62,587 nucleotides of DNA, taken from IMG/VR virus record IMGVR_UViG_3300025679_000008, positions 1-62,587 of that record; one strand, 5' to 3'. The notes under the pieces were generated by a model that saw only the letters and a list, made by a program, of their open reading frames with translations, had not been told where the DNA came from and made no database searches. The position numbers and the translations under genes were made by a program. The first letter of the stretch is position 1. Every line of letters begins with the position of its first letter. This document shows, piece after piece, positions 14,481 to 61,191 of this stretch. Source of the stretch: a virus (lineage: Duplodnaviria; Caudoviricetes).

Positions 14481-17138
14481 ATGCCGGCGATAACCGTATA
14501 CACGGATCCGACAAAGCCTGGTATCTGCAAGGTGCCGGTCTTCAGTGTTGGCGATAGCCAGGCCTGGACGTTCCAATTCAACAACGGGAGCGCGCTCTAC
14601 GATCCGAACGCCGGCAGCGCCGGCGCCGTGTCGGTGGTGCTCGGGTACAAGAACGGCCTGGAGAATATCAACTACCCTTCGGCGTTCCAGTGGGTCGACC
14701 GGTTCAACAACCGGCACATCGGATCCTTTGCCCTGGCCGCTGGGGTCCCTGGATCCCTGGCCTTCGATGAACCTCCCCTGGGCGGGATCTTGGGCAGCAA
14801 CGGCGCCTGGATGTTGGGCGGCGAGGCACCATCCATAGACCAGCGGCTGTCTTCGTATCGCAAGATCTACGCGGATATCGGTGGCGCTGGATATCAATCC
14901 CCACCGGCAATCGGATTCGCTGGATCAGGGACCCTTGCGGCCGCCACGGCAGTTCTCACCGGTCGGGACGGTGGAGTCCAGGCGGTGAATGTCACAACTC
15001 CGGGCACTGGCTATACCAGCGCACCGGCGGTAGGGTTCTCGGGCGGCGGTGGATCCGGAGCTGCAGGTACGGCCATCATCGCCGAGGGCGGCGTGGTCTT
15101 CGTTGTGATCACGAACCCGGGATCAGGCTACACCAGCGCGCCTGCGGTGGCGTTCACCGGCGGCGGCGGGTCTTCGGCCGCGGGAAGTTCCGCGTTGTTC
15201 ACCAATCAGATCATGGGCGCGGCCCTGAGTAACTTTGGCTCGGGATACACTTCAACGCCCGTCGTCAGCCTTTCCGGCGGCGGTGGATCTGGCGGCGTGG
15301 TGGAGGCGCAGATTCAAAACGGATCCGTGGTCGGCGTCGTCGTTGTAAACCCTGGCACCGGGTACAATGCCGGCGCCACCTATCAGCTGGCTTTCAGCGG
15401 CGGTGGTGGATCCGGAGCCGATGCCACGGTCCTGGCGCACATCACAACGGATACGAATCCGGGCACCTTGGGTGCCGTCACCCTGATAAGTGGCGGAGCT
15501 GGGTACACGTCGGCGCCTACGGTGACCGTGGTAGCGGTCGGTGGATCCGGAGCGGCCGCGTCCCTGATCATCTCCGGCGGAGCCATCGTCGGCGCCACCG
15601 TCACGAATCCCGGCAGCGGGTACACGAACCCCCCGCTCACCGTGGTCACCGGCGGCGGCGGATCCGGCGGCGCAATTCACGCGGTAGTGTCCGGAGGCGT
15701 AGTTGCAGCCATCATCGTCGACGTTCCCGGCAGCGGGTACGGAGCTCCGACTGTCGCCTTCACCAATTCGTTGGGCACGGGAGGCACCCTCGCTGCCGTG
15801 ATGCCTTACGCCGGCGTCGGCGGGATCAATTCGATAACCAAGGTCAGCGGCGGGGCTGGGTACACCGCGCCTCCGACGGTTACCTTGGTCGGTGGAGATG
15901 GTACCGGGGCAACCGCCGTGGCCACCTGGGTAGCCGTCGGAAGCACGCCGGTAGTCTCTTTCGTCGTCACGAACCCGGGCACTGGGTACACGATTCCTCC
16001 GGCCGTGGTGATCTCAGGGGCCTCCGGATCCGGGGCGGCGGGGACCGCCATCGTGACCTCGGCAGGGATTCAATCCCTCGTGGTTGTCGCCGGCGGATCC
16101 GGGTACGAGGTCAACGCGCTGCTCCCCCTGGTCTTCAGCGGATCTAATCTTTCGCCTGCCACCGGCTACGCCACAACCGATAGCACGGGCCGCGTCATCT
16201 CGGCTACACTGACCGGGCCCGGGATCTACGGCGGCCCGGGCCTTCCCACGATAACCGTGTCCACAGGTAGCGGCACGGGCGCCTCGGTGGTGGCTTCGTG
16301 GATGCCTGGGCTTGGAGTCTCCTTGTCGATCTCAGCGCTTACTCTGGTGAGTGGAGGCTCTGGATATCCGGCAGGAGTGTCTGGATTCCCGATCAACTTT
16401 GTCGGGCCCTCCATCACCCCGGCCCAGGCCACGATCGACACCAATGGAAGCGGTGTGATCACGTCGGTATCCCTGACGGTTCCCGGGCTATACACGCAAC
16501 TACCGACGATATTCATCCCCTACTTTGGCTCGGGCGCTGTGATTCAGATCCAAGGACCGCAGCCGATTACGCCTTTGGGATCAGTATCATCCCTGACCGT
16601 GATAAATCCCGGCACAGGATATACCTCCGCTCCTTCGCTCACGTTCACTAGAGGAGGAGGCGCCAACGCTGCGGGTTCGGTATCAGCCACGTCCACGACG
16701 ATCTCTTCAGTAACCATCCAATCGGCTGGCGATTCATATCAGGCGGCCATCGATATATCTCTCACCCCGAATTATAATTCCGTCCTCAGCCCAGCCGGCA
16801 TGCTCACGTATGACGTGCCGTTCCTGAAGAACCCGATCACCCTCGAGGTCCTGAAGTCGGTGACGGCAACGCCGGCGACGAATGAGAGGACGATCTTTGG
16901 GGGCACGTCGTCGATATACGACAACTCGCTTTTGATAATCCGGCCGAAGGTCCTGGTTCAACCGTCCCTCACCCTGCAGCCCGACAATGTCACCTATGCG
17001 GCAACCTTCAACCCGGTCACGCCTTTCGTCCTGGCATGCCTCAGGTTCCGTAGGAGTATGACGATGGATCTCCTGATCTACGGAGGAGGGAGGCTCCTCT
17101 TCAGCGGCTCGCTCACGGTCTACAACATCATCCAGTAA
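14481..17138 (+). CDS. Virion fibre/baseplate-like protein with (N/T)PG(S/T)GYTSAP repeats
   Basis: More than 12 repeats of VxxxGSGYTxxPxV...GGGGSGA. Confidence 0.8.
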   Translation: MPAITVYTDPTKPGICKVPVFSVGDSQAWTFQFNNGSALYDPNAGSAGAVSVVLGYKNGLENINYPSAFQWVDRFNNRHIGSFALAAGVPGSLAFDEPPLGGILGSNGAWMLGGEAPSIDQRLSSYRKIYADIGGAGYQSPPAIGFAGSGTLAAATAVLTGRDGGVQAVNVTTPGTGYTSAPAVGFSGGGGSGAAGTAIIAEGGVVFVVITNPGSGYTSAPAVAFTGGGGSSAAGSSALFTNQIMGAALSNFGSGYTSTPVVSLSGGGGSGGVVEAQIQNGSVVGVVVVNPGTGYNAGATYQLAFSGGGGSGADATVLAHITTDTNPGTLGAVTLISGGAGYTSAPTVTVVAVGGSGAAASLIISGGAIVGATVTNPGSGYTNPPLTVVTGGGGSGGAIHAVVSGGVVAAIIVDVPGSGYGAPTVAFTNSLGTGGTLAAVMPYAGVGGINSITKVSGGAGYTAPPTVTLVGGDGTGATAVATWVAVGSTPVVSFVVTNPGTGYTIPPAVVISGASGSGAAGTAIVTSAGIQSLVVVAGGSGYEVNALLPLVFSGSNLSPATGYATTDSTGRVISATLTGPGIYGGPGLPTITVSTGSGTGASVVASWMPGLGVSLSISALTLVSGGSGYPAGVSGFPINFVGPSITPAQATIDTNGSGVITSVSLTVPGLYTQLPTIFIPYFGSGAVIQIQGPQPITPLGSVSSLTVINPGTGYTSAPSLTFTRGGGANAAGSVSATSTTISSVTIQSAGDSYQAAIDISLTPNYNSVLSPAGMLTYDVPFLKNPITLEVLKSVTATPATNERTIFGGTSSIYDNSLLIIRPKVLVQPSLTLQPDNVTYAATFNPVTPFVLACLRFRRSMTMDLLIYGGGRLLFSGSLTVYNIIQ

Positions 17139-32220: not shown

Positions 32221-32345
32221 TGCCCGAGCTTTTCCTACCTGAAGTAGAGGTATCCCTGGATCCCAGCGAGACAGGGCTGCACGGCTGCCTAGAGCCTTTG
32301 CTCGACGATCCACCTGAAGGAGAGGAAGACGATGGCGAAGATTGA
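32220..32345 (+). CDS. 41-aa acidic peptide MPELFLPEVEVSLDPSETGLHGCLEPLLDDPPEGEEDDGED
   Basis: TAATG-coupled to the ATP-grasp stop; fills the gap and overlaps the next start; below the ORF cutoff. Confidence 0.55.
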   Translation: MPELFLPEVEVSLDPSETGLHGCLEPLLDDPPEGEEDDGED

Positions 32346-35300: not shown

Positions 35301-38049
35301 CGCCGGCGACTTCGCGAAGGCCACGAACGATATCAACGCCGGCGCCGTGGACCCGGCGATCGCCGCGGTGAAGCCCAGGATCGCAAAGGTGAAACTCAGC
35401 GGGCCGATCTGGGACAAGTACCGGGAGGATGCCGCCACGCGCCTTGCGGATCTCGTGGAGTCCAAGGCCGAGCCCCCGAAGGATAAGGCTCCCCTGCAGG
35501 AGTTCACCCAGCGCATCGTTGAGGAGATCCGCGGCCGCATCAAAGGCCTGCTCCCGAACAAGGAGCCGGTTGAGTCCGCCTCGCCGCTCGCCATCCTGGC
35601 CGAAGCCATGCGCAACCCGGAGAAGTACAAGCAGGTGGTGGACTCGGTGCGCAAGGAGTTCGTCGATCGCTTCGGTGAAGGCAGCCCGCCGGTCGACCTG
35701 ATCGACACGGAGCTGGGCAACATGGATCTGAGGCCGTACTCCAATCGGATCCTCGACCAGGTCACACGCCAGGCCCACGAGGAAATGCAGACCTCGGTAG
35801 CGAAGATCGCCCGCACACACTGGACAAAGGCGGACCGAGTCAACCGGGATCTTGCGGAGGCTCTCGTGACCGGCCTGAGGCTGAAGCCGGAGGATGCTCA
35901 CATGCTGGCCGATGACCTGCAGAAGAGGATGGACGAGCTCACGCAGGCGGCCAGGTCCAAGGCGATCTGGCAGCTCATCGAGCGCGCCCAGACTCCGCGG
36001 GCTAAGAAGATCCTCTCCACGCTCGAGAAGACGGTGAATCTAAACAACCTGGGCGCGCTCACCGAGGCCACGGCCAGGGACGCCGTGGCGAAGCAGCTGG
36101 GCCTACCTCACGTGGACAGCGCGGATCTCGATCGCCTGGGGCAGCTGGCAGACAAGGTCGAGACCGCTCCGAATGTCGCGGCGAAGGCCCGGGCGACGAT
36201 CAACCTGGCCAAGGAGCTCCGAGACCTGCAGCGGCCGGGAAAGTGGAAGGATGCGATAGACACCGGGTTCTCGATGCTCTACGCGAATCTCCTCTTCTCG
36301 AAGACGATCGCCGTGAAGTCGATCGCCGACGTGACGAACACGATCTCGCGCGTCGGCTCGGCCGCCCTGGCGAATCCTCTGGACGCCGGCACTGTCGTAC
36401 ACGCCTGGCTGGACAGCATGGGCATGGGATGGGAGCAGGCGAAGTCCGTGATCCAGCGCGGCAAGGGCGGCGCCGGCTACTCTCCAGAGATGGGCGGGTA
36501 CCGATCGGCCGGCTCGGATCCCTGGCATCTCAGCGGCCTCGAGGGGAAGAATCTACCCCTGACCGGCGGCCGCGTTCCGCTCCCGCACAAGTACGTCCCC
36601 CGGATCTACAAGGCGATCGAGTCGATCTTCTACTACCCCGCGCGAGAGGCCTACGCTCGCCTGGTGGCCACGAAGCTCCTGCAGAAGGATGGGTACCGCG
36701 GAGCGGAGCTCCGGCGCAAGGTGCGCGATACGCTCGGGATCTCCCCGGACCAGTTCCAAAACTTCCGGCTGCAGGCGGAGCGCGAAGGCTTCACTGGCGA
36801 CGACGTGGGCCTGCGGGTCGGCAGCCTGGTTGAGCAGCACCGGGTCAAGAACGCGCCGGAGGCCTCGGATCAGAGTCAGAGGTTTGCCGAGGAGACGGTC
36901 TTCAAGCAGGAGCCGAAGGGCATCGAGGGTGTGATCTACCGCAGCGGCCGCGACCTGGCGTCAAAGGTCACGATCGCCGGCGTGCCGGTCCTCAAGCCAT
37001 TCATGCTCTTCATGAAGATCCCGACGAACGCCTTCTCGATGTCGGCGGAATACACTCCGATCGGGATCAAGCGGGCGCTCATGGGGACCAGGGATGCCGG
37101 CACCGGCGAGAGGATCCCGCCGACTACCCAGGAGAGAAACCAGATGCTCATCCGCGGCACCGCGGGATCCCTCATGATGGGGGCGCTGGTGGCGGCCGTG
37201 GTCAACAAGAGCAACGACGGGCACTTCGATGTCACCGGCCGCGGGCCCAGCCAGCCGAACAAGCGCAAGCAGCTGCAGCAGGCCGGCTGGATCCCGTATA
37301 GCTTCCGTGTCGCCGGCGGGCCCTATATCAGCTACGCGCATAGCCCGCTCATGATCCCGCTGTCGTTTGTCGGCAACGTGGCGGACATGTACCGCTATGA
37401 GAAGGAGACGCCGCAGTCGGACTACCTCATGGGCTCGAGGCTGGCTCAGGCCGGAATGCGATCTGGATTCTCGGTCCTGGATCTCCCGATGCTTCAGGGC
37501 ATGTCCCAGCTCCTCGACGGGATCCGCGGCCGCTCGAGCGTCGCAACCTTCAACCGTTTCCTCGCCGGCACGGCAACGTCGACGGTCCTGCCGAAAGGCC
37601 TCATGGAGATCGACCAGGCCTTCGACCCGAAGGAGTACGATCCCACGCCCGGGCGCCTGGGGCAGCTCGAAAGCCAGGTCCCGTTTGCCCGGCGCCTGGG
37701 CGAGCAGCAGCTCGGGCCCACAGGCGAGCCGCTGACCTATAGCCCTATCCAGAGATTCATGAGCCTCGAGGTACCGGGGATCGCAAAGACCCTGTCAGAC
37801 AAAGGGGTCTTCATCACGAACGAGCCGCGGCCGTCGATAGGTTCGGGCAACTCCAAACGCCCGGCCACCGCGGCCGAGTACCAGCGCTACCAGAAGGAGG
37901 CCGGCGCCGAGATCCTCGAGAAGATCCGCGGCGCCATGCCGGAGTTGAATGGCATGGACCAGAAGCGGGCACAGGAGCGCGTGGACCAGATCGTCCGAGA
38001 TGCCAGGTACGCCGCCCGGATCAACCTGGAGAACGCCGGCACCCCTTAG
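32332..38049 (+). CDS. Large polyvalent/ejection protein: zeta-toxin-like P-loop kinase + ParB-like domain + internal-virion-type C-terminus
   Basis: AGGSGSGKS...IYDG...YIHRP...RARK...VP...GH; QVW...VISGRHR; GRGP...QQAGWIPYSFRV...ISY. Confidence 0.82.
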   Translation: MAKIDCPNISLPAWKGLVDQLGPEKAYAAYFRNGNEIPDLSKAHNDLSSRPGSYNGPADARPVEEQYKGLPASKGGKYISTDVARRIIPGYDPMNPTATNGVASEITEKAYTQALSDQTTKQVEMFAGGSGSGKSGMLAKITAPNTLIYDGLFSSKDSLDRLDRTVATGKPVALTYIHRPIEDAIGGMFRRARKDGATQPIVPADVVAKGHFNSADNFLQAYDKYKDNPNVSFRAFDNGRGEGKADFADSPIDFVRKLVADRPSREEYYERARSHPEVPGLSDADRATYLGARPVREAAPGQPEQGNAGGSVPDVPGAPGDRPAGDVAPGVDTPAPADQPPANAPQAPTQGGGEASHDGGRAGGSARGQPDSEGNAGVPGGPHGETPGVLQPGPAAGPGSLDASERSDVRSGAVSGAPGISPRSVAGGVPVVEFPVEKLKLSKDVPQFKANANERGVVEPLAGSYDRRGGGALQVWQRLNGDYEVISGRHRFDLGLRTGEKTLPVQIYRESEGFDKMSAARLDAELNIRDGNGSIADYSSYFRHSGITDADAQARGLLARTKGKTGFQIARDSSEDTFALHQAERLSDDAASSISRAAPGDAGLQGVGARAVLEGKSAAFAENLVQAARLRSGGSSGAESGDLFAFDDSAMKEMEAQAKRAQQAQQAIREQISAAQGAARNPVMAKKLGVDVKDPAAVQGRINKLKADLERWLHWPTQEDLVAKTRDPMFDPRSETAAFPGLVSGRAAEAWADDVIKSKAGQVSGGIDPEYIAAFAIKGAAIIERGIRDFASWSAEMVKEFPTLTADALQKIWAQVKANGAEVPDNPKPRPTAEDGTRFRSTPDTEREGQRAAGVDPTVDRQTYQVRAKSEARAAARVLIDLSGAEKAREMSRDPDSQLPQDIRGGIFIELAADADKRIREAKKPEERAAAIRDRQALSSSEAVENTGLGQRISMLGELNKNTRAGVTQEYLDQTDRRQQGEFGQDGQKAAGDFAKATNDINAGAVDPAIAAVKPRIAKVKLSGPIWDKYREDAATRLADLVESKAEPPKDKAPLQEFTQRIVEEIRGRIKGLLPNKEPVESASPLAILAEAMRNPEKYKQVVDSVRKEFVDRFGEGSPPVDLIDTELGNMDLRPYSNRILDQVTRQAHEEMQTSVAKIARTHWTKADRVNRDLAEALVTGLRLKPEDAHMLADDLQKRMDELTQAARSKAIWQLIERAQTPRAKKILSTLEKTVNLNNLGALTEATARDAVAKQLGLPHVDSADLDRLGQLADKVETAPNVAAKARATINLAKELRDLQRPGKWKDAIDTGFSMLYANLLFSKTIAVKSIADVTNTISRVGSAALANPLDAGTVVHAWLDSMGMGWEQAKSVIQRGKGGAGYSPEMGGYRSAGSDPWHLSGLEGKNLPLTGGRVPLPHKYVPRIYKAIESIFYYPAREAYARLVATKLLQKDGYRGAELRRKVRDTLGISPDQFQNFRLQAEREGFTGDDVGLRVGSLVEQHRVKNAPEASDQSQRFAEETVFKQEPKGIEGVIYRSGRDLASKVTIAGVPVLKPFMLFMKIPTNAFSMSAEYTPIGIKRALMGTRDAGTGERIPPTTQERNQMLIRGTAGSLMMGALVAAVVNKSNDGHFDVTGRGPSQPNKRKQLQQAGWIPYSFRVAGGPYISYAHSPLMIPLSFVGNVADMYRYEKETPQSDYLMGSRLAQAGMRSGFSVLDLPMLQGMSQLLDGIRGRSSVATFNRFLAGTATSTVLPKGLMEIDQAFDPKEYDPTPGRLGQLESQVPFARRLGEQQLGPTGEPLTYSPIQRFMSLEVPGIAKTLSDKGVFITNEPRPSIGSGNSKRPATAAEYQRYQKEAGAEILEKIRGAMPELNGMDQKRAQERVDQIVRDARYAARINLENAGTP

Positions 38050-38086: not shown

Positions 38087-40150
38087 ATGCCCCGTACGAC
38101 AAACTTCGTCCTGAACCAGGAGCAGGAGAATCGGCTGACCCAGTTCATCGACAACAAGTACGAGGCGCTGAAGCAGGATAACCTCGAGCGCCTGGTCCTG
38201 GACGCCCAGGCCTGGAAGCGCTACAACCTCGAGGTCAAGGAGCGGGATTCGCTCAACCAGGAGATCTACAGCCTGTCGAATATCCCGGTGCCGGTGTACG
38301 CGATGATCATGGAGCATTTCGTTTCGCGCTCCGAGGACTCGACCACTGGCGACAAGCCCTACTTCCATTTCGACGCCGTCGGCGGATCCCAGGATCGGGC
38401 GATGGCCTATGACCGGTACTTCAACTGGAAGCTCGATGAGATGGGCCGGGTCCACGAGTCCCTCCAGGATGACCAGCTCCCCACCTTCATCCAGTGCGCG
38501 AGCTTCCTGAAGGCGGTATTCAAGCGGGAGACGATCGGATGGATCGACCACGACAAGCAGGTCCTCCACGATCGGAACACGAGGCAGCCGATCGAGATCC
38601 TGAATCACGGGCCGATAATCAAGGACGAGGACGGATTCACGCCGCAGCTGGATCCCGTTGGCGGCATCCGCGGCGCCTTCGGGGCGAAGCCTGAGGAGCG
38701 CCTCCATCTCAACGCGGATCCCACGTTCGTCATGGACGAGTCCAAGCACTACTGGGACAAGCCGCCGGCGGGGCTCAAGCGGACGGAGAACATCTACACC
38801 GGGGCGAAGAGCGAGAACATACCCTACGATCGGATGCTCGCCCCGATGGATGCCGAGTCCTTCGATGCGGCGGACACGGTGATCGAGATCCAGGACCGGG
38901 ACTTCAACTGGTTTCAAAATAACTGGATCGAGAGACCGTTCCTCAGGTGGGCGGATTTCGTAGGCAAGTTCAGCATCGGCGACACCACGTCGAAGGCAGC
39001 CAAGGACAGCCCGACCCAGAGCACTCAGACCGGCACCGTTACCCCGGTGGCCAACGACACGGTCAATCCCGTGCGCAAGGTCTATGAGTGCTGGATCCGC
39101 CGTGACGTAATGGGCAACGGGACACTGCCACCCCAGGACTTCGTTTGCTGGTACGACGTGGAGACCAAGGTGCTCGTGTACTACGAGTGGTTGGCGAAGG
39201 TCTGCCCGGACATGAAGCGGCCGTACACGGTCACGGCTATCCGCAAGATGCCGAAGCGCTGGTGGGGAAAGAGCATCTGGCAGGTGGGTAAGCCTATCTT
39301 CGAGTCGATCGACCGCCTGTTCAACGGCGAGTTCTTCCGCGCCATCCAGCAGGCCAACCCCCCGAAGGGCGGAGATCCGAACGCCGCGGTCGAGGAGCCG
39401 CGGGACATCGGCGCGGATCCCACGAAATACTGGGAGCTGAAGAAGGGCCGCAACATCAAGGAGCTCCTCGAGTACGCCACAGTCCCGGATACCAACGCCC
39501 GGAGCCAGATGATCCTCGAGTACCTGGTGTACTGGCTGCAGCTGTGGCTCGGGATCTCGAACCTGGCCCAGGGCGACTACCAGGCGGTCAACACGAACGC
39601 CACGAAGTACGGGATACAGAAGACGCTTGCGGAGAGCTCGATGCTCGGCCGGCGCTGGATCCGCCGGCTGATCTCATCCTGGGAAGAGCACATCACGAAG
39701 CTCGTCCTCATCACCGTTCAGACGCTCCCGCAGAACCAGAAGGAAACCTACGAGTACACCGAGGGTGACCAGCGCAAGAGCGCGCTGATCCAGGCGATCG
39801 ACATCAAGCAGCTGACGATTCACGTCTCGATAGTCATGGGCCAGAACCAGGAGGAGAAGGACATCGAGCGGGCCAAGACCGCCCTGGACGTCCAGGAGAA
39901 ATACTTTGGGCAGATCAACCCGCAGGTCCGGCTTGTCATGCGGCCGCTGCTCGTGGAGATCCTGGGCGACCTGGGGTACGACAATCCCGAGGACCTGCTA
40001 CCGATCACTGCGGCGCTGCCCGTGGATCCGGCGATGCTGGGCGGCGGCGAGGGTCAGCTGCACAAGGCCGTGGCTGTCGCCGCCGGCGCCGCGGATCCCA
40101 ACTCCGGGGTGCCGATCCCTCAACCCCCTGAAGCCGGAGGCAAGAAATGA
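38087..40150 (+). CDS. Portal protein
   Basis: RKVYECW, WWGKSI, LGISNLAQGD...NATKYGI; size and pattern of podoviral portals. Confidence 0.85.
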   Translation: MPRTTNFVLNQEQENRLTQFIDNKYEALKQDNLERLVLDAQAWKRYNLEVKERDSLNQEIYSLSNIPVPVYAMIMEHFVSRSEDSTTGDKPYFHFDAVGGSQDRAMAYDRYFNWKLDEMGRVHESLQDDQLPTFIQCASFLKAVFKRETIGWIDHDKQVLHDRNTRQPIEILNHGPIIKDEDGFTPQLDPVGGIRGAFGAKPEERLHLNADPTFVMDESKHYWDKPPAGLKRTENIYTGAKSENIPYDRMLAPMDAESFDAADTVIEIQDRDFNWFQNNWIERPFLRWADFVGKFSIGDTTSKAAKDSPTQSTQTGTVTPVANDTVNPVRKVYECWIRRDVMGNGTLPPQDFVCWYDVETKVLVYYEWLAKVCPDMKRPYTVTAIRKMPKRWWGKSIWQVGKPIFESIDRLFNGEFFRAIQQANPPKGGDPNAAVEEPRDIGADPTKYWELKKGRNIKELLEYATVPDTNARSQMILEYLVYWLQLWLGISNLAQGDYQAVNTNATKYGIQKTLAESSMLGRRWIRRLISSWEEHITKLVLITVQTLPQNQKETYEYTEGDQRKSALIQAIDIKQLTIHVSIVMGQNQEEKDIERAKTALDVQEKYFGQINPQVRLVMRPLLVEILGDLGYDNPEDLLPITAALPVDPAMLGGGEGQLHKAVAVAAGAADPNSGVPIPQPPEAGGKK

Positions 40151-40440
40151 GCACACCGAAGGAAGAGCGAGACTACGTGAAGGACATGGCCGAGCTGCAG
40201 AAGCTCAAGGATTCCGACGGCTGGAAGCTCGTGAGCGCCACCGCCCAGGCTGCGTTTGTTGATTTGACAGCGATCATCCTCGACCCTAAGACCCCGATCA
40301 GCGAAGTCGACGGACTGAGGCAGGCAAGGGGCCGCCTCGAGGAAGACTTCCTTCCAGAAAAGCTCCTAACCAATCTCCTAAAACGAACCAGGCCCGCAGC
40401 TGAGGCTCAAACCCAGCAGGCCTTAGGACGCAAATCGTGA
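40147..40440 (+). CDS. Small portal-associated protein
   Basis: ELQKLKDSDGWKLV pattern commonly found after portals. Confidence 0.65.
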   Translation: MSTPKEERDYVKDMAELQKLKDSDGWKLVSATAQAAFVDLTAIILDPKTPISEVDGLRQARGRLEEDFLPEKLLTNLLKRTRPAAEAQTQQALGRKS

Positions 40441-40868
40441 GCACCCCTCCGCAAAACCAGGTCAAGTCCTACATCGGGTTCACGCCGACGGGTGGCAACC
40501 CGAGCTATAGGACGCAGCGCTCCAGCGACCAGGGCCGACTCGGCGGCGCCCCGTTGAATATCGGCAACGACCAGGAGGAGATCTCGATCTACGCCTATCT
40601 CTTCCGGAACCTGAATGCCGCGGCCGTATACATCAACATCTTCGCGTTGCCGGCGGAGCAGGTTAAGGCCGGATCCATCCCGATCGGCCGTATAGAAATA
40701 CCTGGCACGTCGAATCCCCCGAACCAGCTGATCGGTCCGATGCTCTTCACGCCGTACTACTACGGCCAGGCGGGTATGTCCATGACCGCCTCCACTATCG
40801 ACGCGGACGGAAGCGCCGTCGGCAACGCCCCCGCATCTCCCGTCTACTTCGAGCTCGTCATCGCCTAA
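40437..40868 (+). CDS. Small beta-sandwich virion protein
   Basis: NLNAAAVYINIF...GMSMTAST pattern; no signal peptide. Confidence 0.65.
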   Translation: MSTPPQNQVKSYIGFTPTGGNPSYRTQRSSDQGRLGGAPLNIGNDQEEISIYAYLFRNLNAAAVYINIFALPAEQVKAGSIPIGRIEIPGTSNPPNQLIGPMLFTPYYYGQAGMSMTASTIDADGSAVGNAPASPVYFELVIA

Positions 40869-40881
40869 CCATCCTCCACCC

Positions 40882-41664
40882 ATGAAAAATCGCCTCCTGT
40901 CCTTCCTGCTTCTCTTCGTCGTCCTGCTCTGCGCCTGGGTCACGCCGGCGCGCGCGCAGCTCACCCCGGTCAACATAACAACCGGCGGCACGTACCCGCT
41001 GACCGCCGGCGAGTTCGCCGTGGTCACGCCGGCTTGCTCCGGCGCCGTCACCTTTATCCTGCCCCTGCAGCCGGTGGGAAGCTCCGCCGTCAAGGTCAAG
41101 AACCAGAGCCAGCAGCAGGATACGATCTCCGGCCCGATCTACTCGACCGGCGCGGTTACGTCGATGTTCCTCAACCCGGGACAGATGGCCACCTTCGACT
41201 CGGACGGCGTCTACGAGGACACCTATCTGCCGCAGAACCTCATCGACACCTACACGCAGCGCCTCGGGGGTTCGGCCTACAATCTCACCGTCACGAACGC
41301 CGCGATCGTCGGCGGCACCACAAGCCCGGTGATCCAGATCGGAAACACCGACGCCGGTTGGTACTGGGTCTTCGCCTCGGTGGTGACCTACAAGAATGCC
41401 GCCACCTATGCCGCGCAGCAGTTCGAGACCTTCCAGGTGTTCCGAACGAACAACACGATCGGCGCGATCGCTGGCACCGGCGTCTCCAATCCTATCGGTC
41501 CGATCACGACGATCACCGACTCGGCCGGGGCGATCACGCTGCCGCCGGTCCTCGTCTACCTGAACGGCTTGGACATCCTCACTATCTACGGCCAGGTGAG
41601 CGCAACGCCGGCGGGCAACATCCAGGTCACGGCAGCGAATATCCTGGCGGTTAGGTGGCAGTAA
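40882..41664 (+). CDS. Signal-peptide-bearing fibre/spike-like protein
   Basis: MKNRLLSFLLLFVVLLCAWVTPARA|Q, then a beta-rich body. Confidence 0.8.
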   Translation: MKNRLLSFLLLFVVLLCAWVTPARAQLTPVNITTGGTYPLTAGEFAVVTPACSGAVTFILPLQPVGSSAVKVKNQSQQQDTISGPIYSTGAVTSMFLNPGQMATFDSDGVYEDTYLPQNLIDTYTQRLGGSAYNLTVTNAAIVGGTTSPVIQIGNTDAGWYWVFASVVTYKNAATYAAQQFETFQVFRTNNTIGAIAGTGVSNPIGPITTITDSAGAITLPPVLVYLNGLDILTIYGQVSATPAGNIQVTAANILAVRWQ

Positions 41665-44408
41665 TGCGCTGGCTGCGGATAGCAGCGGCCGCGCTCCTGG
41701 GCGCCTGCGTGGCGCGGGCCCAGGTTGTAGTCCCGATCACCGTCACCAAGGCCTCGGGTACGAACGTACTCAACGGGCCGATCGTCATCCAGCCCAGCGG
41801 CACGGGCCTGCAGGCTGGCGTCGGGGCCACGGTTGATTTCACAGGCGCCACACTGTTGGGATTTCCAGGGGGCGGTACCGTGAACACCTTCTCGGCCGGG
41901 ACACTGTCTCCGCTCTTCACTACTAGCGTAGCGAATCCCACGACGGCGCCGGCACTGACATTCAACGCTTCCACCGCTGCTCAAAATGCCGTCCTGGTAG
42001 GCCCTGTCAGCGGCGGCACAGGAGCATACAGCTTCCGGCTTCTACAAGCTGCGGACATCCCGTCGCTATCCTACCAGCCCCTCGCCACGAACCTGACCAG
42101 CCTCGCCGGCCTGTCCTACGCCTCCCTGTCCTTCGTGAAGATGAGCGCGGCCGGCACGTTCTCCCTGGATACAAACACCTACCTGACCTCCAGCACGGGC
42201 GTCTCGTCGATCGCCGGGACGGCAAATCAGATTACCGCCTCTGGTTCCACCGGCTCGGTCACGCTCGCGCTCGCGTCGCCACTCCTCGCTCCCGGACTGA
42301 TAGAGCACACCAACGGCGGCAGCACGACGCCTTCCAGTGTATTTGCCGGAGCTACGACGACCGGCCTTTATTGGGCCAACCCCGGCATAGGGTTCACAGT
42401 GGCCGCAACGAGCATCGGCACTATGACGTCGACCGGCTTGAACGGCATGGCTGTAGGAGCGACGACGGCGAGCACGGGAGCGTTCACGAGCCTGTCAGCG
42501 TCGAGCGGGCTCACCGTGTCGTCGGGGAATGTCGGCATCACGTCCGGCAATGAGACGATCACCGCCGGGAACCTGACTATTTCGGCAGGCACGATCTCCG
42601 CAACTGACGTCTTGACGGTAACCAGTGGCACGACCAACGAGCTTTCAGCAACTATTAACAATTCTTCCACTGTTTCTAGTTTCACCGGGAGCATTAATGC
42701 GGGTTTATTCACGGCGGCTCCTGCGTCTACGAACACCCAGAATTGGACAGCTGGAGCCTTTAATTCCTCTAGTTTGGGAATGGCCGCGGTTGTAGCCAGG
42801 GTGGGATCAAATAGCGCGGCAAGCGGCACCGTCACGATGGCAGCGGCCTCAGTCGCCGTATTTGCGTTTGGTAGCAGTTTAACGACCACAAATTTAATTG
42901 GGTTCTTCAATCCGAGCGGGGCATTAACAAGTACCTTTGGTTCAATTTACGGCGCCTATATCGGCGCGCAGACGGGGACGATTACGAACGCCGTCGGCAT
43001 CGCTGTCGCCACGCAAACCGGAGGGGGCACCGGCAACGCTGACATCATCTTCGGCACCGCAGTCACGCCGTCACTCCCCAGCGGCAACGTCGGCCTCTAC
43101 CAGCAGGATGCCTACGCGAACACCCTTGCAGGTATCACGAATTTCACGAGCGGCACCGCCTCAACGACGACCGGCACAGGCTCAGTCGTTGTCACGGGGG
43201 GCGTCGGCATCAGCGGCGCAGTCAACATCGGGACGACGCTGACTGCGACCGGCGGCGCGTCCTCGCTCGCCAACACGTCCATCGCGGGTGCCGCGGCCAC
43301 GACCGCGTTAACGATCACCCAGACGGCCCGCACGTCCGGTGTGCTCCCTTACGTCAAATATACCATCCCGACCGACACCGCCCAGACCGCCTCCACGGAG
43401 TCGCCTGGGATTCAGGGCGTCACCGGGACGCGGACTTGGGCCACCACGGGCACAGTTGCCCTCCAGCGCGAAATCTACTGGCCCGGCCCGACCTACGCCA
43501 GCGCCTCAGCCTCTCAGACCTTCACCGATGTTTTCAACACCTATTGGGACAAGCCGATTCAGGGGTCGAATGCGGTATTTACTCGGTCTCACACGCTGGG
43601 AGTTGTCGATTCTACGTCGGCGGCTTCGTCGATCACGGGCGCCGTCGTAATCGCTACCACGCTCGGCACGACGGCCACGAGCGTCGGAATTGGCGGGGGC
43701 AACATCAACGCAGGAGGCGGGATTACGGGGGCAACGGTAACATCGACTGGAGCGTTGACTGCAGGGGCGACGGCGATCACAGGAGCAGCAGCAACTACGG
43801 CCCTGACGATAACCCAGACCGCCCGGACCTCCGGCGTCCTTCCCTACATCAAATGGACGATCCCGACCGACACGGCCCAGACGGCTTCGACGGAATCTCC
43901 AGGCTTGCAGGTCGTGACCGGCACGAGGACCTGGGCGACGACAGGCACCGTTGCCCTCCAGCGCGAGAACTTCTTTGCGGGCCCCACCTACGCCAGCGCC
44001 TCAGCCTCTCAGACCTTCACCGATACCTTCACGCTCTATGCCACGCCGCCCGTCGCAGGAGCCAACGCCATCTTCACGCGCGGGCACACGCTCGGCATCG
44101 TGGACCCGACCAGCGCCGCAAGCGCGATCACCGGAGGCCTGGTGGTGGCAACGACGCTCGGCACGGCGGCAACGTCGGTCGGTATCGGCGGCGGCAATGT
44201 GAATGCCGGCGGAACGATCACTAGCGGTACCACGATTACCGCAGGATCTACGATCACCACGGCCGCCGGCGTGACTAACGCTGCCGGCGTCTGGAACCTT
44301 GGAGCCCTTCGCTCGAGCACCGCCCTCGTGACGTCCACAACCCAAGTCATTCAGATTGCCGTGGGCGGCACCCTCTTCTCGCTCATGACCTGCACAACCA
44401 ATCCTTGA
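41664..44408 (+). CDS. Signal-peptide-bearing tail-fibre-like protein (914 aa) with an internal 165-aa duplication
   Basis: MRWLRIAAAALLGACVARA|Q; fibre motifs SFRLLQAADIP, GVSSIAGTANQIT, GATTASTGAFTSL, GSVVVTGGVGISG. Confidence 0.85.
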   Translation: MRWLRIAAAALLGACVARAQVVVPITVTKASGTNVLNGPIVIQPSGTGLQAGVGATVDFTGATLLGFPGGGTVNTFSAGTLSPLFTTSVANPTTAPALTFNASTAAQNAVLVGPVSGGTGAYSFRLLQAADIPSLSYQPLATNLTSLAGLSYASLSFVKMSAAGTFSLDTNTYLTSSTGVSSIAGTANQITASGSTGSVTLALASPLLAPGLIEHTNGGSTTPSSVFAGATTTGLYWANPGIGFTVAATSIGTMTSTGLNGMAVGATTASTGAFTSLSASSGLTVSSGNVGITSGNETITAGNLTISAGTISATDVLTVTSGTTNELSATINNSSTVSSFTGSINAGLFTAAPASTNTQNWTAGAFNSSSLGMAAVVARVGSNSAASGTVTMAAASVAVFAFGSSLTTTNLIGFFNPSGALTSTFGSIYGAYIGAQTGTITNAVGIAVATQTGGGTGNADIIFGTAVTPSLPSGNVGLYQQDAYANTLAGITNFTSGTASTTTGTGSVVVTGGVGISGAVNIGTTLTATGGASSLANTSIAGAAATTALTITQTARTSGVLPYVKYTIPTDTAQTASTESPGIQGVTGTRTWATTGTVALQREIYWPGPTYASASASQTFTDVFNTYWDKPIQGSNAVFTRSHTLGVVDSTSAASSITGAVVIATTLGTTATSVGIGGGNINAGGGITGATVTSTGALTAGATAITGAAATTALTITQTARTSGVLPYIKWTIPTDTAQTASTESPGLQVVTGTRTWATTGTVALQRENFFAGPTYASASASQTFTDTFTLYATPPVAGANAIFTRGHTLGIVDPTSAASAITGGLVVATTLGTAATSVGIGGGNVNAGGTITSGTTITAGSTITTAAGVTNAAGVWNLGALRSSTALVTSTTQVIQIAVGGTLFSLMTCTTNP
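43280..44230 (+). repeat. Tandem intragenic duplication, 495-bp period
   Basis: 43311 aligns to 43806; 43491-43529 is identical to 43986-44024. Confidence 0.92.
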
Positions 44409-44412
44409 TGCC

Positions 44413-44793
44413 ATGAAAATCATCGCCCTCCTAGTGGCGCTTCTCGCCACCACGCTGGCCTCGGCCGGCCAAACGACTGTCACCAACCCCACCGCGCCGC
44501 AAGCTGCCACGCAGTCCGCAGCCTACCCGTTCCAGATCGTATTCAACATCAATACAACCAACGGCGCGATCACCGCCCTCACGGCGACGGAGTACTTCCG
44601 TACCGATGTTACAGTCGGCGGAGTGGTCACGGCGCAGCCCCCGGCGCCCTTGGCGTTGAACCTCGACTTCCTAGGCACCGGCTCCAAGACGATCACCGTC
44701 CTCGGTCAGACGTTCACCTACGCCCAAGTGTGGACCGCTCTCAATGCCGTGCTCAATCAGGAGCGCACCGCGCAGGTTGCCGCAGGGCCTTAA
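44413..44793 (+). CDS. Signal-peptide-bearing fibre-associated protein
   Basis: MKIIALLVALLATTLASA|G. Confidence 0.8.
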   Translation: MKIIALLVALLATTLASAGQTTVTNPTAPQAATQSAAYPFQIVFNINTTNGAITALTATEYFRTDVTVGGVVTAQPPAPLALNLDFLGTGSKTITVLGQTFTYAQVWTALNAVLNQERTAQVAAGP

Positions 44794-44835
44794 TAGGTGT
44801 TGACGCATATATCGGCCTCCATATAGATCGCGGGA

Positions 44836-45276
44836 ATGATCCGATATATTGCTACCCTCGCGCTGGCCCTAACCCTGTCCTTCACCGCCCGCGCTGCCGA
44901 TACGGTCAAGCTGCGGGCCCTCGAGCTGAAGGATCTCTCGGTATCCTTCACGGATCCGACCACCGGACACCAGGTCTCGATCCCCGTTCACTACGCCGAC
45001 CTGGTGCGCCAGGTGCTGCTCACGGCGCCGGCCAACGGCCGCGGCACCGACGACGTGGTCCGCTCCGTCGAGGTCTGGGAGCCGATTAAGAAGATCATCG
45101 ACCAGAAGGGCACCCGGGTCCTGCTCTCGGATTCCGACTACCAGTTTCTCCTCCAGCACATCAACGGCTTCAACTGGGGCGGAGCGCCCGACATCCAGGA
45201 GACGATCGCCGACTTCATCAAGTACGTGCGCGGCCTGAAAGAGGCTGAGTTTCCCGTGTCTGATCCCAAGACCTGA
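44836..45276 (+). CDS. Signal-peptide-bearing fibre-chaperone-like protein
   Basis: MIRYIATLALALTLSFTARA|A; body YADLV...VLLSDSDYQFL...FNW...IADF resembles small genes that follow phage fibres. Confidence 0.72.
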   Translation: MIRYIATLALALTLSFTARAADTVKLRALELKDLSVSFTDPTTGHQVSIPVHYADLVRQVLLTAPANGRGTDDVVRSVEVWEPIKKIIDQKGTRVLLSDSDYQFLLQHINGFNWGGAPDIQETIADFIKYVRGLKEAEFPVSDPKT

Positions 45277-45279
45277 GCC

Positions 45280-45480
45280 ATGAACTCCAACCAGCTCCGC
45301 ATCGCCGCAATGGCCGTCTACTTCGTGATTGGTGTCCTCGTTGCGTTGAACGTGCTCACCGAGAAGCAGGGCTTCGAGATCCTGGCGGCCGCGGTCGGCG
45401 CCAAGGAGTTTGGCCAGCAATACCTCACGCCGGCCACCAACCAGCGCACGCCGGACGTTGTACCGCCTAAGGCGCCCTGA
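45280..45480 (+). CDS. Holin-like small membrane protein
   Basis: 66 aa, one or two hydrophobic helices. Confidence 0.5.
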   Translation: MNSNQLRIAAMAVYFVIGVLVALNVLTEKQGFEILAAAVGAKEFGQQYLTPATNQRTPDVVPPKAP

Positions 45481-45489
45481 TCCCTTCCT

Positions 45490-45904
45490 CATGAAAATCA
45501 AAACCATGCTAGTCCTCGCCGGGAGCCTCGTGCTCGTCGGCTGCGCCGGTATCGCCGCCGCCGAGTCCATCAAGGCCGTCTCCGAGATTGCCGCCACCAA
45601 TGCCGTCCAGAACGGCGACCTGACCGCGGCCCAGCTCTCGACGCTGGCCACGGATCTCGCCGCCCTCCCCCAGACGCCGCTCCCCACCGCGGACAACAAG
45701 CTGATCGCCGGCATCATCACGCAGGCCACGAAGCACAAGGCGGCCACGCCGACCGATGCGTCGGTGGTTGACGCGCTCAACGGTGTGCTCGGGGATATCC
45801 AGGGCAGCCGGCCGCCGACTCCCGCCGACGGCATCGCCTGGGCGAACCTTCAAGACGCCGTGCTAGGCTTCAAGAAGGCCGGTACGTTGCTCGCCACGCC
45901 GTAA
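45490..45904 (+). CDS. Lipoprotein
   Basis: MKIKTMLVLAGSLVLVG|C lipobox. Confidence 0.75.
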
Positions 45905-45905
45905 G

Positions 45906-46685
45906 GTGCCGGCATCGCCGCTCACGCTTCTTTGCGCCCGGCTCCAGGCGAAAGCCTACGATCCGGGCTTTTTAGCGACTGGTATACAGGATCTCAGCGA
46001 GTTTGGGCTGACCAAGACCCACACTATTTGGGCAGACGATCCGAGGGTTGGAAAGGTCCGCCACGGGCATATCAGCATGGCCGCGTTTGGCGTCACCGGC
46101 ATCCGCGTCTTCTGGACCTTTGACGGCACCCTGGTCCCCAAGGGATCCTTCGTGGAGTGGTTAGATGACTTCGATGTGTTCCTGGTGGCGAGTCCCTGGA
46201 ACCCCGGAGACCGTGTCCACCGGGGCATGCTGCGGTTTTTCCAGAGCATGAGCGTGGTCGACGACGCCACGGGGGTTGAGCTCCCCATCCTGGACTTCAT
46301 TGCGGCCAATCCTGGGCTCGCCAAGGGGGCCATCTACACCGGCCATAGCCTTGGGACCTTCACGGCGACATGCGCCTGCCTGGAGGGTTCCGGGGGCGCC
46401 CTGATCCTCTTCGCGCCGCCCAGGCCTGGGGACAAGCCCTTCCGGGAGTCGGTGTTCAATGCTCTGCGGGACGCCGGCGGGATCCTCGAGAGCTACGCCA
46501 ACCCCAACGACGCGGTCCCCAGGGTGCCGATCACCCTCAACTACCCCTGGCACTTCTTCGACTTCTGGCCGGTCGTCGACTCGACCCATCTGCGGCCGGA
46601 TCTTGTGGATCCTCCCATCCCCTCGGACTGGGCCTCGAGCCATCACATGCCCAACTACCTGGCGCTCCTCGAGGCGATGCCCTGA
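45906..46685 (+). CDS. Class 3 lipase / alpha-beta hydrolase
   Basis: FDGT...EWLDD...VHRG...YTGHSLG...FAPPRPGD...NPNDAVPRVP...HHM..Y. Confidence 0.9.
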   Translation: MPASPLTLLCARLQAKAYDPGFLATGIQDLSEFGLTKTHTIWADDPRVGKVRHGHISMAAFGVTGIRVFWTFDGTLVPKGSFVEWLDDFDVFLVASPWNPGDRVHRGMLRFFQSMSVVDDATGVELPILDFIAANPGLAKGAIYTGHSLGTFTATCACLEGSGGALILFAPPRPGDKPFRESVFNALRDAGGILESYANPNDAVPRVPITLNYPWHFFDFWPVVDSTHLRPDLVDPPIPSDWASSHHMPNYLALLEAMP

Positions 46686-46687
46686 GA

Positions 46688-46705
46688 CTACGTCTTTTGA
46701 CGTAG
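46688..46705 (+). terminator. Hairpin after the lipase gene
   Basis: CTACGTC-TTTT-GACGTAG with a T-run shortly downstream. Confidence 0.45.
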
Positions 46706-46732
46706 CCGCCTAGTTTTTGCATCTTGCACGCC

Positions 46733-46760
46733 TGGGGTGAATACCCCATTGGTGGGGTAT
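46733..46760. promoter_or_regulatory. Overlapping palindromic operator-like sites
   Basis: TGGGGTGAATACCCCA and ATACCCCA-TTGG-TGGGGTAT. Confidence 0.55.
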
Positions 46761-46764
46761 CTAA

Positions 46765-47199
46765 ATGTCGCGCTCCCACGCACAATACCCCACGGAACGG
46801 GCGTACACGGAACGGGCGTACGAGGCCGGGGTCGTTCGTCGCATGATAGGATCGCGCGGATTCCTGTGGGTCCTGGGCGCCGTCGGAATGGTATTCCTGA
46901 CACTTCTCGCGCTCGGGGCCGAGGCTTGGGTCCAGAAGCAGGCGGCCCTCGCGCCGGAGATCGTCGCTGCCAAGGCCGACGTGGACACCCTGAAGGTGGC
47001 CGTGAACGTCCTCAAGAACCAGTCCGATGCCCACACCAGCCTTCTATCCCAGTCGGCCATCGAGCAGGCCCGGGCGGCCGCCCTACAGGAGAGGATCTTC
47101 ACCGCCATCAAGGGTGTCAGCGACGGCGTTCATGCCCTGGACGTGAAGATCGCCACGGTCGACCAGAAGGTCGATGACTTGAAGGACCAGCGGAAGTAG
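46765..47199 (+). CDS. Membrane-anchored coiled-coil protein (lysis-associated?)
   Basis: One TM helix then coiled coil; 15-bp tandem repeat at 46791-46821. Confidence 0.7.
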   Translation: MSRSHAQYPTERAYTERAYEAGVVRRMIGSRGFLWVLGAVGMVFLTLLALGAEAWVQKQAALAPEIVAAKADVDTLKVAVNVLKNQSDAHTSLLSQSAIEQARAAALQERIFTAIKGVSDGVHALDVKIATVDQKVDDLKDQRK

Positions 47200-47232
47200 G
47201 GAACCAGCGCCCGGCCGGGCGTACAAAGGGGG

Positions 47233-47454
47233 ATGCTCACCCTTGCCGATATCAGCGGCCGAGATGTCGGCTCGCTCCTCATCCAGCTCCTTATCGCCGG
47301 CGTGGTCTTCTACCTGGTGGTGTGGCTGATCGGCTGGATCGGGATCCCGGCGCCCGTCGACAAGGTCATCAAGGCGATCATCGGGATCGCTCTGGTCATC
47401 TACCTGGTGAACGTCCTGGCCGGCCTAGGCGGCCATGCCTTCATCCACTGGTAA
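47233..47454 (+). CDS. Two-TM small membrane protein (Thivi_2564-like)
   Basis: LLI.LLIAGVV.YLV.W...IP.PV..VI..IIG...VIYL. Confidence 0.72.
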   Translation: MLTLADISGRDVGSLLIQLLIAGVVFYLVVWLIGWIGIPAPVDKVIKAIIGIALVIYLVNVLAGLGGHAFIHW

Positions 47455-60814: not shown

Positions 60815-61191
60815 GCAACCTCCAGGTAGATCGGCCGGCCGCAGATGCCCTTCAAATGATCCGCGCGGCGGTATATCCGTCTCTTGTTCGGCTCATACTG
60901 GTAGGACGCTGGATATATCTCCATGCCCAGCTGGTGCTGTCCGGGTTTGCAGGGCAGCTGGATTTCCGGCGGAAACTCCAGCGCTGCGGCCATCGGCATG
61001 TAGCCCTCGAGGCCGTCGGCCGCCACAAATAGAGCTACGCCGTAGCCGGCAGGCAGGCGCCTCTGATTCTCCAGGATCTCGGCTTCGCGCTCGAGGACGA
61101 TCGCGTCTCCGGCTTTGGCTCGCTCGATGATCTTGTCGTAGTCCAGCCGGGTAAGGTGGATCTCGATGTCGTGGTCTCCGTAGTGGCTCAT
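60811..61191 (-). CDS. Hypothetical protein
   Basis: Coupled ORF. Confidence 0.65.
   Translation of the reverse strand: MSHYGDHDIEIHLTRLDYDKIIERAKAGDAIVLEREAEILENQRRLPAGYGVALFVAADGLEGYMPMAAALEFPPEIQLPCKPGQHQLGMEIYPASYQYEPNKRRIYRRADHLKGICGRPIYLEVA

Follow-up and report, generated by a model that had tools for sequence, protein, structure and literature searches.

A tail fibre module with predicted signal peptides in a podovirus-like phage genome

The IMG/VR virus record IMGVR_UViG_3300025679_000008 (Duplodnaviria; Caudoviricetes) was analyzed over its whole length of 62,587 bp (linear, GC content ~63%), referred to below as the window. Four consecutive late genes of the window (40882-45276) encode proteins that all begin with a predicted Sec-type signal peptide, and two of these proteins, of 260 and 914 amino acids (aa), are receptor-binding proteins. 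We propose, with a probability of about 0.55, that the products of this module are exported, processed virion fibres that attach to the particles at or after lysis. We infer their export, cleavage, periplasmic folding and time of attachment from observed signal-peptide features and the conservation of these features, from a receptor-binding fold, from synteny, and from the virion annotation of analogous proteins in a cultured phage.

Predicted signal peptides of the module and its homologues

The first gene of the module (40882..41664, plus strand) encodes the 260-aa protein, a predicted trimeric short receptor-binding protein. Its N-terminus, MKNRLLSFLLLFVVLLCAWVTPARA followed by QLTP, ends ...TPARA↓QLTP (the arrow marks the predicted cleavage site), which gives a signal peptide of residues 1-25 (nucleotides 40882-40956). 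The second gene (41664..44408, plus strand) encodes the 914-aa long fibre and starts with MRWLRIAAAALLGACVARA followed by QVVV, ending ...CVARA↓QVVV (residues 1-19, nucleotides 41664-41720); an alternative GTG start at 41655 would add three residues. The remaining two genes, also on the plus strand, encode predicted exported proteins of 126 aa (44413..44793; MKIIALLVALLATTLASA followed by GQTT, ending ...LASA↓GQTT; signal peptide 1-18) and 146 aa (44836..45276; MIRYIATLALALTLSFTARA followed by ADTV, ending ...TARA↓ADTV; signal peptide 1-20). Each N-terminus comprises a basic n-region, an uncharged hydrophobic core (h-region) of 12-16 residues and small residues at positions -3 and -1, as judged by inspection and by a crude scoring rule of our own, used in place of SignalP. 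A twin-arginine (RR) motif, as in substrates of the twin-arginine translocation (Tat) pathway, is absent from all four N-termini. Residues 11-15 of the 914-aa protein (LLGAC, 41694-41708) form a possible lipobox, in which case the long fibre would be a lipoprotein instead of a signal peptidase I substrate; just seven hydrophobic residues precede this motif, ARA↓Q follows it, and most homologues lack a cysteine at this place.

Applied to a set of 76 open reading frames (ORFs) of the window, weighted by GC content at third codon positions (GC3), the rule flagged four: three module genes and one at 61188-61403 for a membrane protein of 71 aa. A spurious antisense ORF had kept the 146-aa gene out of this set; judged by eye, and through its homologues, this gene satisfies the rule. 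By our own arithmetic, the chance of finding four in a row among five flagged genes of 76 is about 3 in 10,000. The capsid (11194), the portal (38087), the 249-aa and 336-aa genes and the 885-aa fibre (14481) were not flagged with a positive n-region. The rule and the inspection therefore agree with an earlier interpretation made from the letters only (the sequence-only reading), which had described the ORFs and N-termini of these four consecutive genes and had noted the lack of signal peptides in the capsid, portal and 14481 fibre.

The predicted signal peptides are a family trait that is widespread among relatives. By the same rule they are present in 66 of the 120 listed homologues of the 914-aa protein (and, behind an over-long start, in three more), in 67 of the 150 listed homologues of the 260-aa protein, including all three full-length ones (P0126-P0128), and in every one of the five members of the 146-aa family, among them that of the window. 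Their sequences vary freely among homologues, with the pattern kept. Homologues without a signal peptide open instead with recurring N-terminal motifs of cytoplasmic type.

A glutamine preceded by Ala, Gly, Ser or Cys directly after the h-region was found in 40/62 (914-aa family) and 39/66 (260-aa family) signal-peptide homologues, i.e. in ~60%, compared with 5/57 and 11/84 homologues without a signal peptide and a mature-region background of 0.023 per position. Gln also occupies position +1 at two of the four sites in the window and in the fibre of its closest relative. This pattern matches the Q-rule of Bacteroidetes signal peptidase I substrates (mean Q-value 71%; above 48% in 332 of 334 species; PMC5837995), in which glutaminyl cyclase then makes pyroglutamate from the N-terminal Gln (PMC10653852). 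Since a bias at +1 is expected only if the chain is cleaved, it argues that the predicted cleavage sites are really used.

The hydrophobic N-termini might nevertheless not serve export: the proteins would then remain in the cytoplasm and be added to the tail in the usual manner, with the uncleaved N-terminus acting as an anchor or membrane-insertion element. Such an explanation keeps the textbook cytoplasmic assembly route and fits the joint conservation of the signal peptide and the first ~20 residues in Cellulophaga phages phi10:1 and phi13:2 (see below); moreover, Sec function may be impaired late in infection. It agrees poorly with the complete n/h/c architecture, small residues at -3 and -1 included, with a positive n-region, which predicts that the bulk of the protein lies outside, with signal-peptide sequences that vary freely around a kept pattern, and with the ~60% frequency of Gln just after the core, a preference linked to both signal peptidase I and glutaminyl cyclase (PMC5837995, PMC10653852). 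We consider it rather unlikely.

An artefact was also weighed: the start codons might be misassigned, or the contig might be a chimera carrying host surface genes. The record is a metagenomic contig with a CheckV completeness of 52%, and no Shine-Dalgarno (SD)-like motif is visible ahead of the starts (40868-40882, 44408-44413, 44793-44836 and, for the lipoprotein gene further downstream, 45480-45491). Against wrong starts stand the tight packing of the module genes (gaps of 4-42 nucleotides, or overlaps), their uniformly high GC3 and the signal peptides conserved in the 146-aa family (5/5) and in full-length homologues of the 260-aa protein (3/3). Against a chimera stand the same layout in three related phage genomes and the lack of any bacterial family match; a search for the domain of the 914-aa protein in 185,579 species genomes gave only three short contigs of metagenome-assembled genomes (MAGs). 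We therefore regard an artefact as highly improbable. The MAG result, together with the lack of an NCBIfam match, also means that the 914-aa family does not consist of ordinary host surface proteins, an interpretation that the sequence-only reading had kept in view; its homologues are essentially confined to phage contigs. Most starts lacking an SD motif read ATG AAA, or ATG followed by a basic codon, and the absence of SD-like motifs ahead of the module starts hints at a host that initiates translation without SD pairing.

In a FastTree phylogeny of the conserved domain of the 914-aa family, which covers 104 of the 120 proteins (domain matches shorter than 100 aa were left out), the signal-peptide state changes 25 times, compared with 32.9 ± 2.4 changes in shuffles (1 of 500 shuffles gave 25 or fewer). 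Clustering of the trait is thus only weak, and the domain passes between fibres that have a signal peptide and fibres that lack one. The neighbourhoods of such fibres were compared in 22 IMG/VR loci: 14 of 69 neighbours of nine signal-peptide fibres carry a signal peptide, versus 7 of 80 around 11 fibres without one (Fisher p 0.058). Two loci were dropped from this test because no ORF lay over the match (L009 and L023), two others contain badly called short ORFs (L015 and L017), and the L003 fibre was scored as lacking a signal peptide though its protein, P0011, was flagged elsewhere. Runs of three to five signal-peptide genes, some of them encoding proteins of 500-1700 aa, surround the signal-peptide fibres of L002 (12109-15436), L014 (3155-15015) and L012 (4400-11365).

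Receptor-binding proteins and their counterparts in cultured phages

The AlphaFold2 (AF2) model of the 260-aa protein, built with 78 sequences, has a mean predicted local distance difference test (pLDDT) score of 88 and consists of a signal helix, an N-terminal beta-sandwich (residues 29-105) and a C-terminal TNF/C1q-like jelly-roll head (residues 123-259). Foldseek matched the jelly roll to TNF/C1q-like trimers in the PDB (BxpB/ExsF/BclA, the BC2L-C lectin and 4-1BBL); the phage matches of the head were tail proteins of cyanophages A-1(L) and A4 and the receptor-binding protein of phage 1358. In BFVD, the model matched C1q-domain and pectate-lyase proteins of uncultured phages, as well as the "structural protein" R9ZYK6 (gp094) of Cellulophaga phage phi10:1.

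Modelled as a homotrimer, the mature 260-aa chain reached an ipSAE of 0.85, versus 0.00 for the best of three controls, with a contact agreement of at least 87% between runs and a partner pLDDT of at least 88. In calibration, 20 of 30 pair-solved proteins and 1 of 23 solved as single chains came up to this ipSAE mark; because TNF-like trimers have already been solved, the trimer result may partly reflect likeness to known structures. A phmmer search gave 512 matches (E ≤ 0.001), nearly all to the last ~135 residues. This domain sits C-terminally in proteins of 150-1232 aa, and in five of ten longer matches scanned it is preceded by a pectate-lyase-like, GDSL or collagen domain. The 260-aa protein is, on the basis of these models and architectures, a receptor-binding protein, predicted to form a homotrimer with a fold used by phage fibres.

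Almost all of the 137 homologues of the 914-aa protein (E ≤ 0.001) align to two tandem ~160-aa domains on its C-terminal side (residues ~545-715 and ~720-880; nucleotides ~43296-43808 and ~43821-44303). Four of the seven homologues scanned contain a named domain – K1-lyase_C, Peptidase_S74, pectate-lyase-like or DUF5907. The mature N-terminus shares 42.6% identity over 188 aa (E 7e-37) with the signal-peptide fibre of the related phage genome G005, which makes the 914-aa protein the counterpart of that fibre, located downstream of the capsid and adaptor genes. The AF2 monomer of the C-terminal repeats failed to fold (pLDDT 50). The impression of the sequence-only reading that this protein is full of fibre motifs was borne out by homologue architecture and fold; no fibre family in Pfam or PHROGs matched it.

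Scans of the four module proteins against Pfam, PHROG and NCBIfam gave no usable match, and the Pfam and NCBIfam scans revealed neither a C-terminal beta-barrel nor a type IX secretion system (T9SS) C-terminal domain, either of which would point to a bacterial adhesin. A profile search of PDB sequences with alignment A3 returned chance matches only. Searches of 50,697 phage records, by blastn with the region and by tblastn with the two conserved domains, yielded no match.

The 126-aa and 146-aa proteins appear to be accessory. The former has one homologue (57% identity) and weak structural look-alikes in the Atlas (template modelling score, TM, 0.5-0.6), three viral clusters of 106, 111 and 138 aa that align to residues 23/28-126. 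Those of the 146-aa protein, also viral clusters, are 113-117 aa long and cover only its mature part (residues 23-143). A search of IMG/VR with the 146-aa family gave no match; in the metagenomes of the Joint Genome Institute (JGI) one homologue was found on a 1.5-kb contig (L061), where it carries a signal peptide and comes after another signal-peptide gene and a fibre-like C-terminus. The description of the 146-aa protein as chaperone-like could not be upheld: neither small protein matches a known chaperone family (Tfa, gp38 or gp57A types) in Pfam, PHROG or NCBIfam, and the look-alike clusters of both are unnamed.

Cultured Cellulophaga phages contain analogous genes. In phi10:1 (NC_021802) five consecutive distal-tail genes, gp091-gp095, all encode signal peptides ending A/G↓Q or S↓Q, and membrane protein genes come next. 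Four of these products, gp091-gp094, are entered in the record as structural protein, virion structural protein, pectate lyase and tail fibre protein, "based on experimental MS/MS proteomics analysis" (MS/MS, tandem mass spectrometry). Relatives of gp094 were found in 24 records, all of Cellulophaga phages, among which phi13:2, Nekkels and phi18:3 share with it only the first 42-56 residues (65-93% identity). The gp086 and gp087 proteins of phi13:2 (NC_021803), a phage of a different family, agree with phi10:1 in their signal peptides and in the ~20 residues that open the mature chain, beyond which they diverge; an endolysin gene lies a few genes further on. A shared N-terminal stub followed by a divergent remainder is the usual anchor pattern of fibres, and here the anchor would start at the predicted cleavage site.

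Synteny, lysis-type genes and the proposed route of assembly

Two related phage genomes, G004 (66,097 bp) and G005 (62,608 bp), both 100% complete according to CheckV, have capsid, portal, terminase-like, helicase and further genes in common with the window, at identities of 21-51%. Their gene order is capsid, SU10-type adaptor (PF24175 in G004), a 294/392-aa gene homologous to the 336-aa gene of the window, a small gene and a signal-peptide fibre, which is the only gene homologous to the 914-aa fibre family; further signal-peptide or lipoprotein genes lie 3' of it in both genomes. The fibre is thus placed in the structural module next to the adaptor in G004 and G005, whereas in the window the post-capsid slot is filled by the 885-aa fibre, which lacks a signal peptide; the signal-peptide module there lies 3' of the portal instead. 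The closest relative found, contig G262:C35 (58,257 bp, all phage genes; capsid 46%, portal 37% and terminase-like protein 49% identity), has the order giant protein, portal, 102-aa gene and a 1038-aa fibre with the internal start MKRIATLVLLFIAALTPCFGQ, followed on the 3' side by a signal-peptide membrane protein, a lipoprotein and a membrane/coiled-coil protein. It therefore resembles the window in having a signal-peptide fibre after the portal and ahead of lysis-type genes. Another contig, G347, is a distant relative with large fibres lacking signal peptides, and a search of IMG/VR with the portal alone confirmed no relative.

Directly downstream of the module, genes from 45280 to 47454 (all on the plus strand) together look like a lysis-type cassette. 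They encode a 66-aa single-pass membrane protein (45280..45480), holin- or antiholin-like to judge by its position; a lipoprotein, MKIKTMLVLAGSLVLVGC, with the lipobox LVGC (...LVLVGC), o-spanin-like by position and without a family match (45491..45904); a class 3 lipase/esterase without a signal peptide (45906..46685; PF01764, E 1.5e-5; phrog_21992 esterase/lipase, E 5.8e-8); a 144-aa protein with an N-terminal membrane segment and a coiled-coil-like remainder, putatively i-spanin-like, with a weak match to phrog_2658 (46765..47199); and a 73-aa multi-pass, holin-like membrane protein (47233..47454; Thivi_2564 family NF041949, 24.5 bits, below the cut-off of 33). The lipoprotein, with its ATG at 45491, is the one that had been noticed downstream of the module from the sequence, and it is real. 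No endolysin was recognised in the cassette. The class 3 lipase, which sits between the lipoprotein and the membrane/coiled-coil protein, may be a lysis enzyme directed at envelope lipids.

We envisage the module as a receptor-binding apparatus made up of the 914-aa long fibre, the 260-aa trimeric protein with a TNF/C1q-like head and two small accessory proteins. The four preproteins would be routed through SecYEG, cut by signal peptidase I at ARA↓Q, ARA↓Q, ASA↓G and ARA↓A, respectively, and would fold and trimerise in the periplasm of a diderm host, while capsid, portal, adaptor and nozzle would be built in the cytoplasm. Once the adjacent lysis cassette had breached the inner membrane, fibre-less particles would meet the mature fibres, which would dock via their processed N-terminal regions. 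Export with periplasmic folding and joining at lysis had been proposed by the sequence-only reading; it remains the most probable reading and is helped by the MS/MS annotations of phi10:1.

The exported proteins might instead act in the host envelope and never join a virion. They could mask or destroy the phage's own receptor, which might exclude superinfection or keep progeny from sticking to debris, or they could loosen surface polysaccharide before release. A role in the envelope would suit the signal peptides and the lectin-like head, lyase or esterase domains occur in some homologues, the module adjoins lysis genes, and the slot behind the capsid and the 249-aa and 336-aa genes of the window is taken by a different fibre, one that lacks a signal peptide. 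Q-rule genes of Porphyromonas gingivalis phages have likewise been read as possible modifiers of the host outer membrane (PMC10367356). This explanation sits less well with G004 and G005, where the signal-peptide fibre is the sole homologue of the family and lies 3' of capsid and adaptor, though both genomes also hold other large ORFs without an assigned function. It also fits less well with the phi10:1 signal-peptide proteins annotated as structural from MS/MS, and with the common N-terminal stubs with divergent C-termini, a signature of virion-anchored fibres. We judge a purely envelope-acting role unlikely, yet the most serious of the alternatives.

Several points weigh against assembly from exported fibres. 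The signal-peptide calls come from a home-made crude rule and not from SignalP, and export, cleavage and attachment time are steps that we infer from sequence. We know of no documented tailed phage that adds periplasmic proteins at lysis. The mature module proteins are not rich in cysteine, so disulfide formation offers no obvious reason for export. The co-occurrence of signal peptides among neighbouring genes is only suggestive. Since the window encodes a second fibre without a signal peptide (14481-17138) in the post-capsid slot, the signal-peptide module could be accessory here. Finally, the MS/MS evidence for phi10:1 is a GenBank note that is silent on N-terminal processing, and abundant exported proteins may have co-purified with the virions.

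A broader reading, which we advance tentatively and at slightly less than an even chance, is that many tailed phages of Bacteroidota, and possibly Verrucomicrobiota, hosts run a second, extracytoplasmic branch of virion assembly. The receptor-binding proteins of these phages would be exported by Sec, cut by signal peptidase I (often with formation of pyroglutamate), folded in the periplasm with co-exported helpers and fitted only at lysis to particles built in the cytoplasm. If so, the infectious virion would be completed outside the cytoplasm, and the timing of lysis would be coupled to virion completion. In textbook accounts tailed phages are assembled wholly in the cytoplasm, and a lack of signal peptides sometimes serves to separate phage proteins from host surface proteins; for the target proteins of diversity-generating retroelements, for example, it was taken as support for phage origin (PMC6199706). 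Should the fibres of many environmental or gut-relevant phages prove to be exported and processed, annotation pipelines and host-range predictors would mis-sort them, and recombinant fibres or depolymerases would best be expressed as mature periplasmic forms.

The remaining structural genes of the window are those of an SU10-like, Kuravirus-type phage. An HK97-type capsid protein (phrog_334, PF13252) is encoded at 11194-12675. Two genes without family matches, for a 97-aa helical protein (40147..40440, plus strand) and a 143-aa protein (40437..40868, plus strand), both lacking signal peptides, separate the module from the portal gene (38087..40150, plus strand; PF23899 SU10_portal, E 4.7e-11; phrog_1216 portal); the 97-aa gene occupies the same place as the 102-aa gene of G262:C35. 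A Pfam scan of the 249-aa gene gave no match. The 885-aa fibre (14481..17138, plus strand), 3' of the capsid and the 249-aa and 336-aa genes, was recognised by synteny with G004 and G005 and by many PHROG matches (virion structural, Hc2, baseplate wedge) that run only through repeated short domains, probably Ig-like repeats; no similarity was found between it and the fibres in the equivalent slot of G004 and G005. No tail tube, sheath or tape-measure gene was recognised in the window, which fits a podovirus-like particle.

A 1905-aa protein (32332-38049), encoded directly 5' of the portal, contains a P-loop motif and hydrophobic segments near its C-terminus and gave no match in a Pfam scan. 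Its homologues are a 4908-aa counterpart in G262:C35 and a fragment at the start of G005; G004 has a 2805-aa ORF in the same pre-portal place, for which no similarity to the 1905-aa protein was found. These large proteins are probably internal virion proteins that are ejected. Helicase and ATPase genes lie on the minus strand, and no tRNA genes are present in the window. Of the two genes for GT9-type (heptosyltransferase-family) glycosyltransferases, at 8526-9674 (minus strand) and 20746-22359 (plus strand), the second is fused to a GT2 domain, and homologues of the first adjoin the portal in G004 and G005. Because the fibres are rich in Ser and Thr, one may speculate that the phage directs glycosylation of its exported fibres. 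A moron or lysogenic-conversion adhesin was rejected as an identity of the module, which is embedded in late genes; no integrase was found among the large ORFs in a scan that was not exhaustive.

Despite its CheckV value, the window may be near-complete: it is similar in length to G004 and G005 and holds terminase-like, portal, capsid, fibre, lysis and replication genes. As a lead to the host, contig G262:C35 (L039-L041) lies in a 6.3-Mb genome assigned to the phylum of an Opitutia MAG. Capsid homologues were found in 2 of 401 genomes of this phylum, one of them the 58-kb phage contig (46-47% identity), and in none of 401 genomes of the phylum of a Planctomycetia MAG. In ~277 kb of the G262 genome, Gln stands right after the h-region in 8 of 29 signal-peptide-like N-termini. 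Verrucophage P8625 is reported to encode no signal-peptide proteins (PMC4642752). The host is thus uncertain, with Verrucomicrobiota possible, the binning of a lone phage contig being weak evidence.

Comparison with known systems

Ordinary fibres and tailspikes, such as P22 gp9, T4 gp34-37 and the SU10 fibres, are trimers of modular build, anchored by the N-terminus and variable in the C-terminal domains, which bind or act as lyases; they are encoded late in the structural module and are the last parts to be attached to finished particles. Unlike the proteins of the window, they have no signal peptide and are assembled in the cytoplasm. P22 tailspikes and T4 fibres join finished particles in vitro, which makes late attachment physically feasible. 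Virion proteins with cleavable signal peptides that assemble at the envelope are known from filamentous phages (g3p, g8p), which differ in being extruded without lysis, in having no capsid, portal or tail, and in their unrelated coat proteins. Spanins, signal-anchor-release (SAR) endolysins, T4 RI and T5 Llp are phage-encoded, Sec-dependent and late or lysis-associated, but they are small lysis or exclusion factors and not receptor-binding fibres.

A tailspike-like fold acting on glycans outside the cytoplasm is found in WceF of Pantoea stewartii, which, in contrast to the module, is a bacterial chromosomal enzyme encoded outside any phage structural module (PMC7949094). Closer in its signal peptides is the case of the P. 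gingivalis phages, in which signal peptidase I substrates exposing an N-terminal Gln were read as an adaptation to the secretion system of the host. Five such Q-rule genes, without an assigned function, were suggested to modify the host outer membrane, and that paper draws no link from them to fibres (PMC10367356).

The nearest parallel is with the Cellulophaga phages. The sequence-only reading had overstated the uniqueness of the module, as the same arrangement exists in these cultured phages, and the lyase-bearing proteins of phages Ingeline and Nekkels were said in a passing remark to "also carry signaling peptides" (PMC8776804). Beyond this remark, our literature search found no account or explanation of signal peptides on tail fibres; nothing pertinent appeared in PMC12210884, PMC5723332, PMC5026251, PMC3338817 or a preprint on B. 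uniformis. Like the window, phi10:1 (gp091-gp095) and phi13:2 (gp084, gp086 and gp087) have consecutive fibre or pectate-lyase genes with Sec-type signal peptides next to membrane or lysis genes, and gp094 of phi10:1 is a structural match to the 260-aa model. Sequence similarity was not detectable by the tblastn searches given above, and the phages themselves differ: phi10:1 and phi13:2 are of siphovirus type or Pachyviridae and infect low-GC Bacteroidota hosts, whereas the window represents a podovirus-like phage with an SU10-type portal, 63% GC and possibly a Verrucomicrobiota host. The design is thus already present in cultured flavobacterial phages. With cultured Cellulophaga phages of the same layout and with virion mass spectrometry, the question can be tested now.

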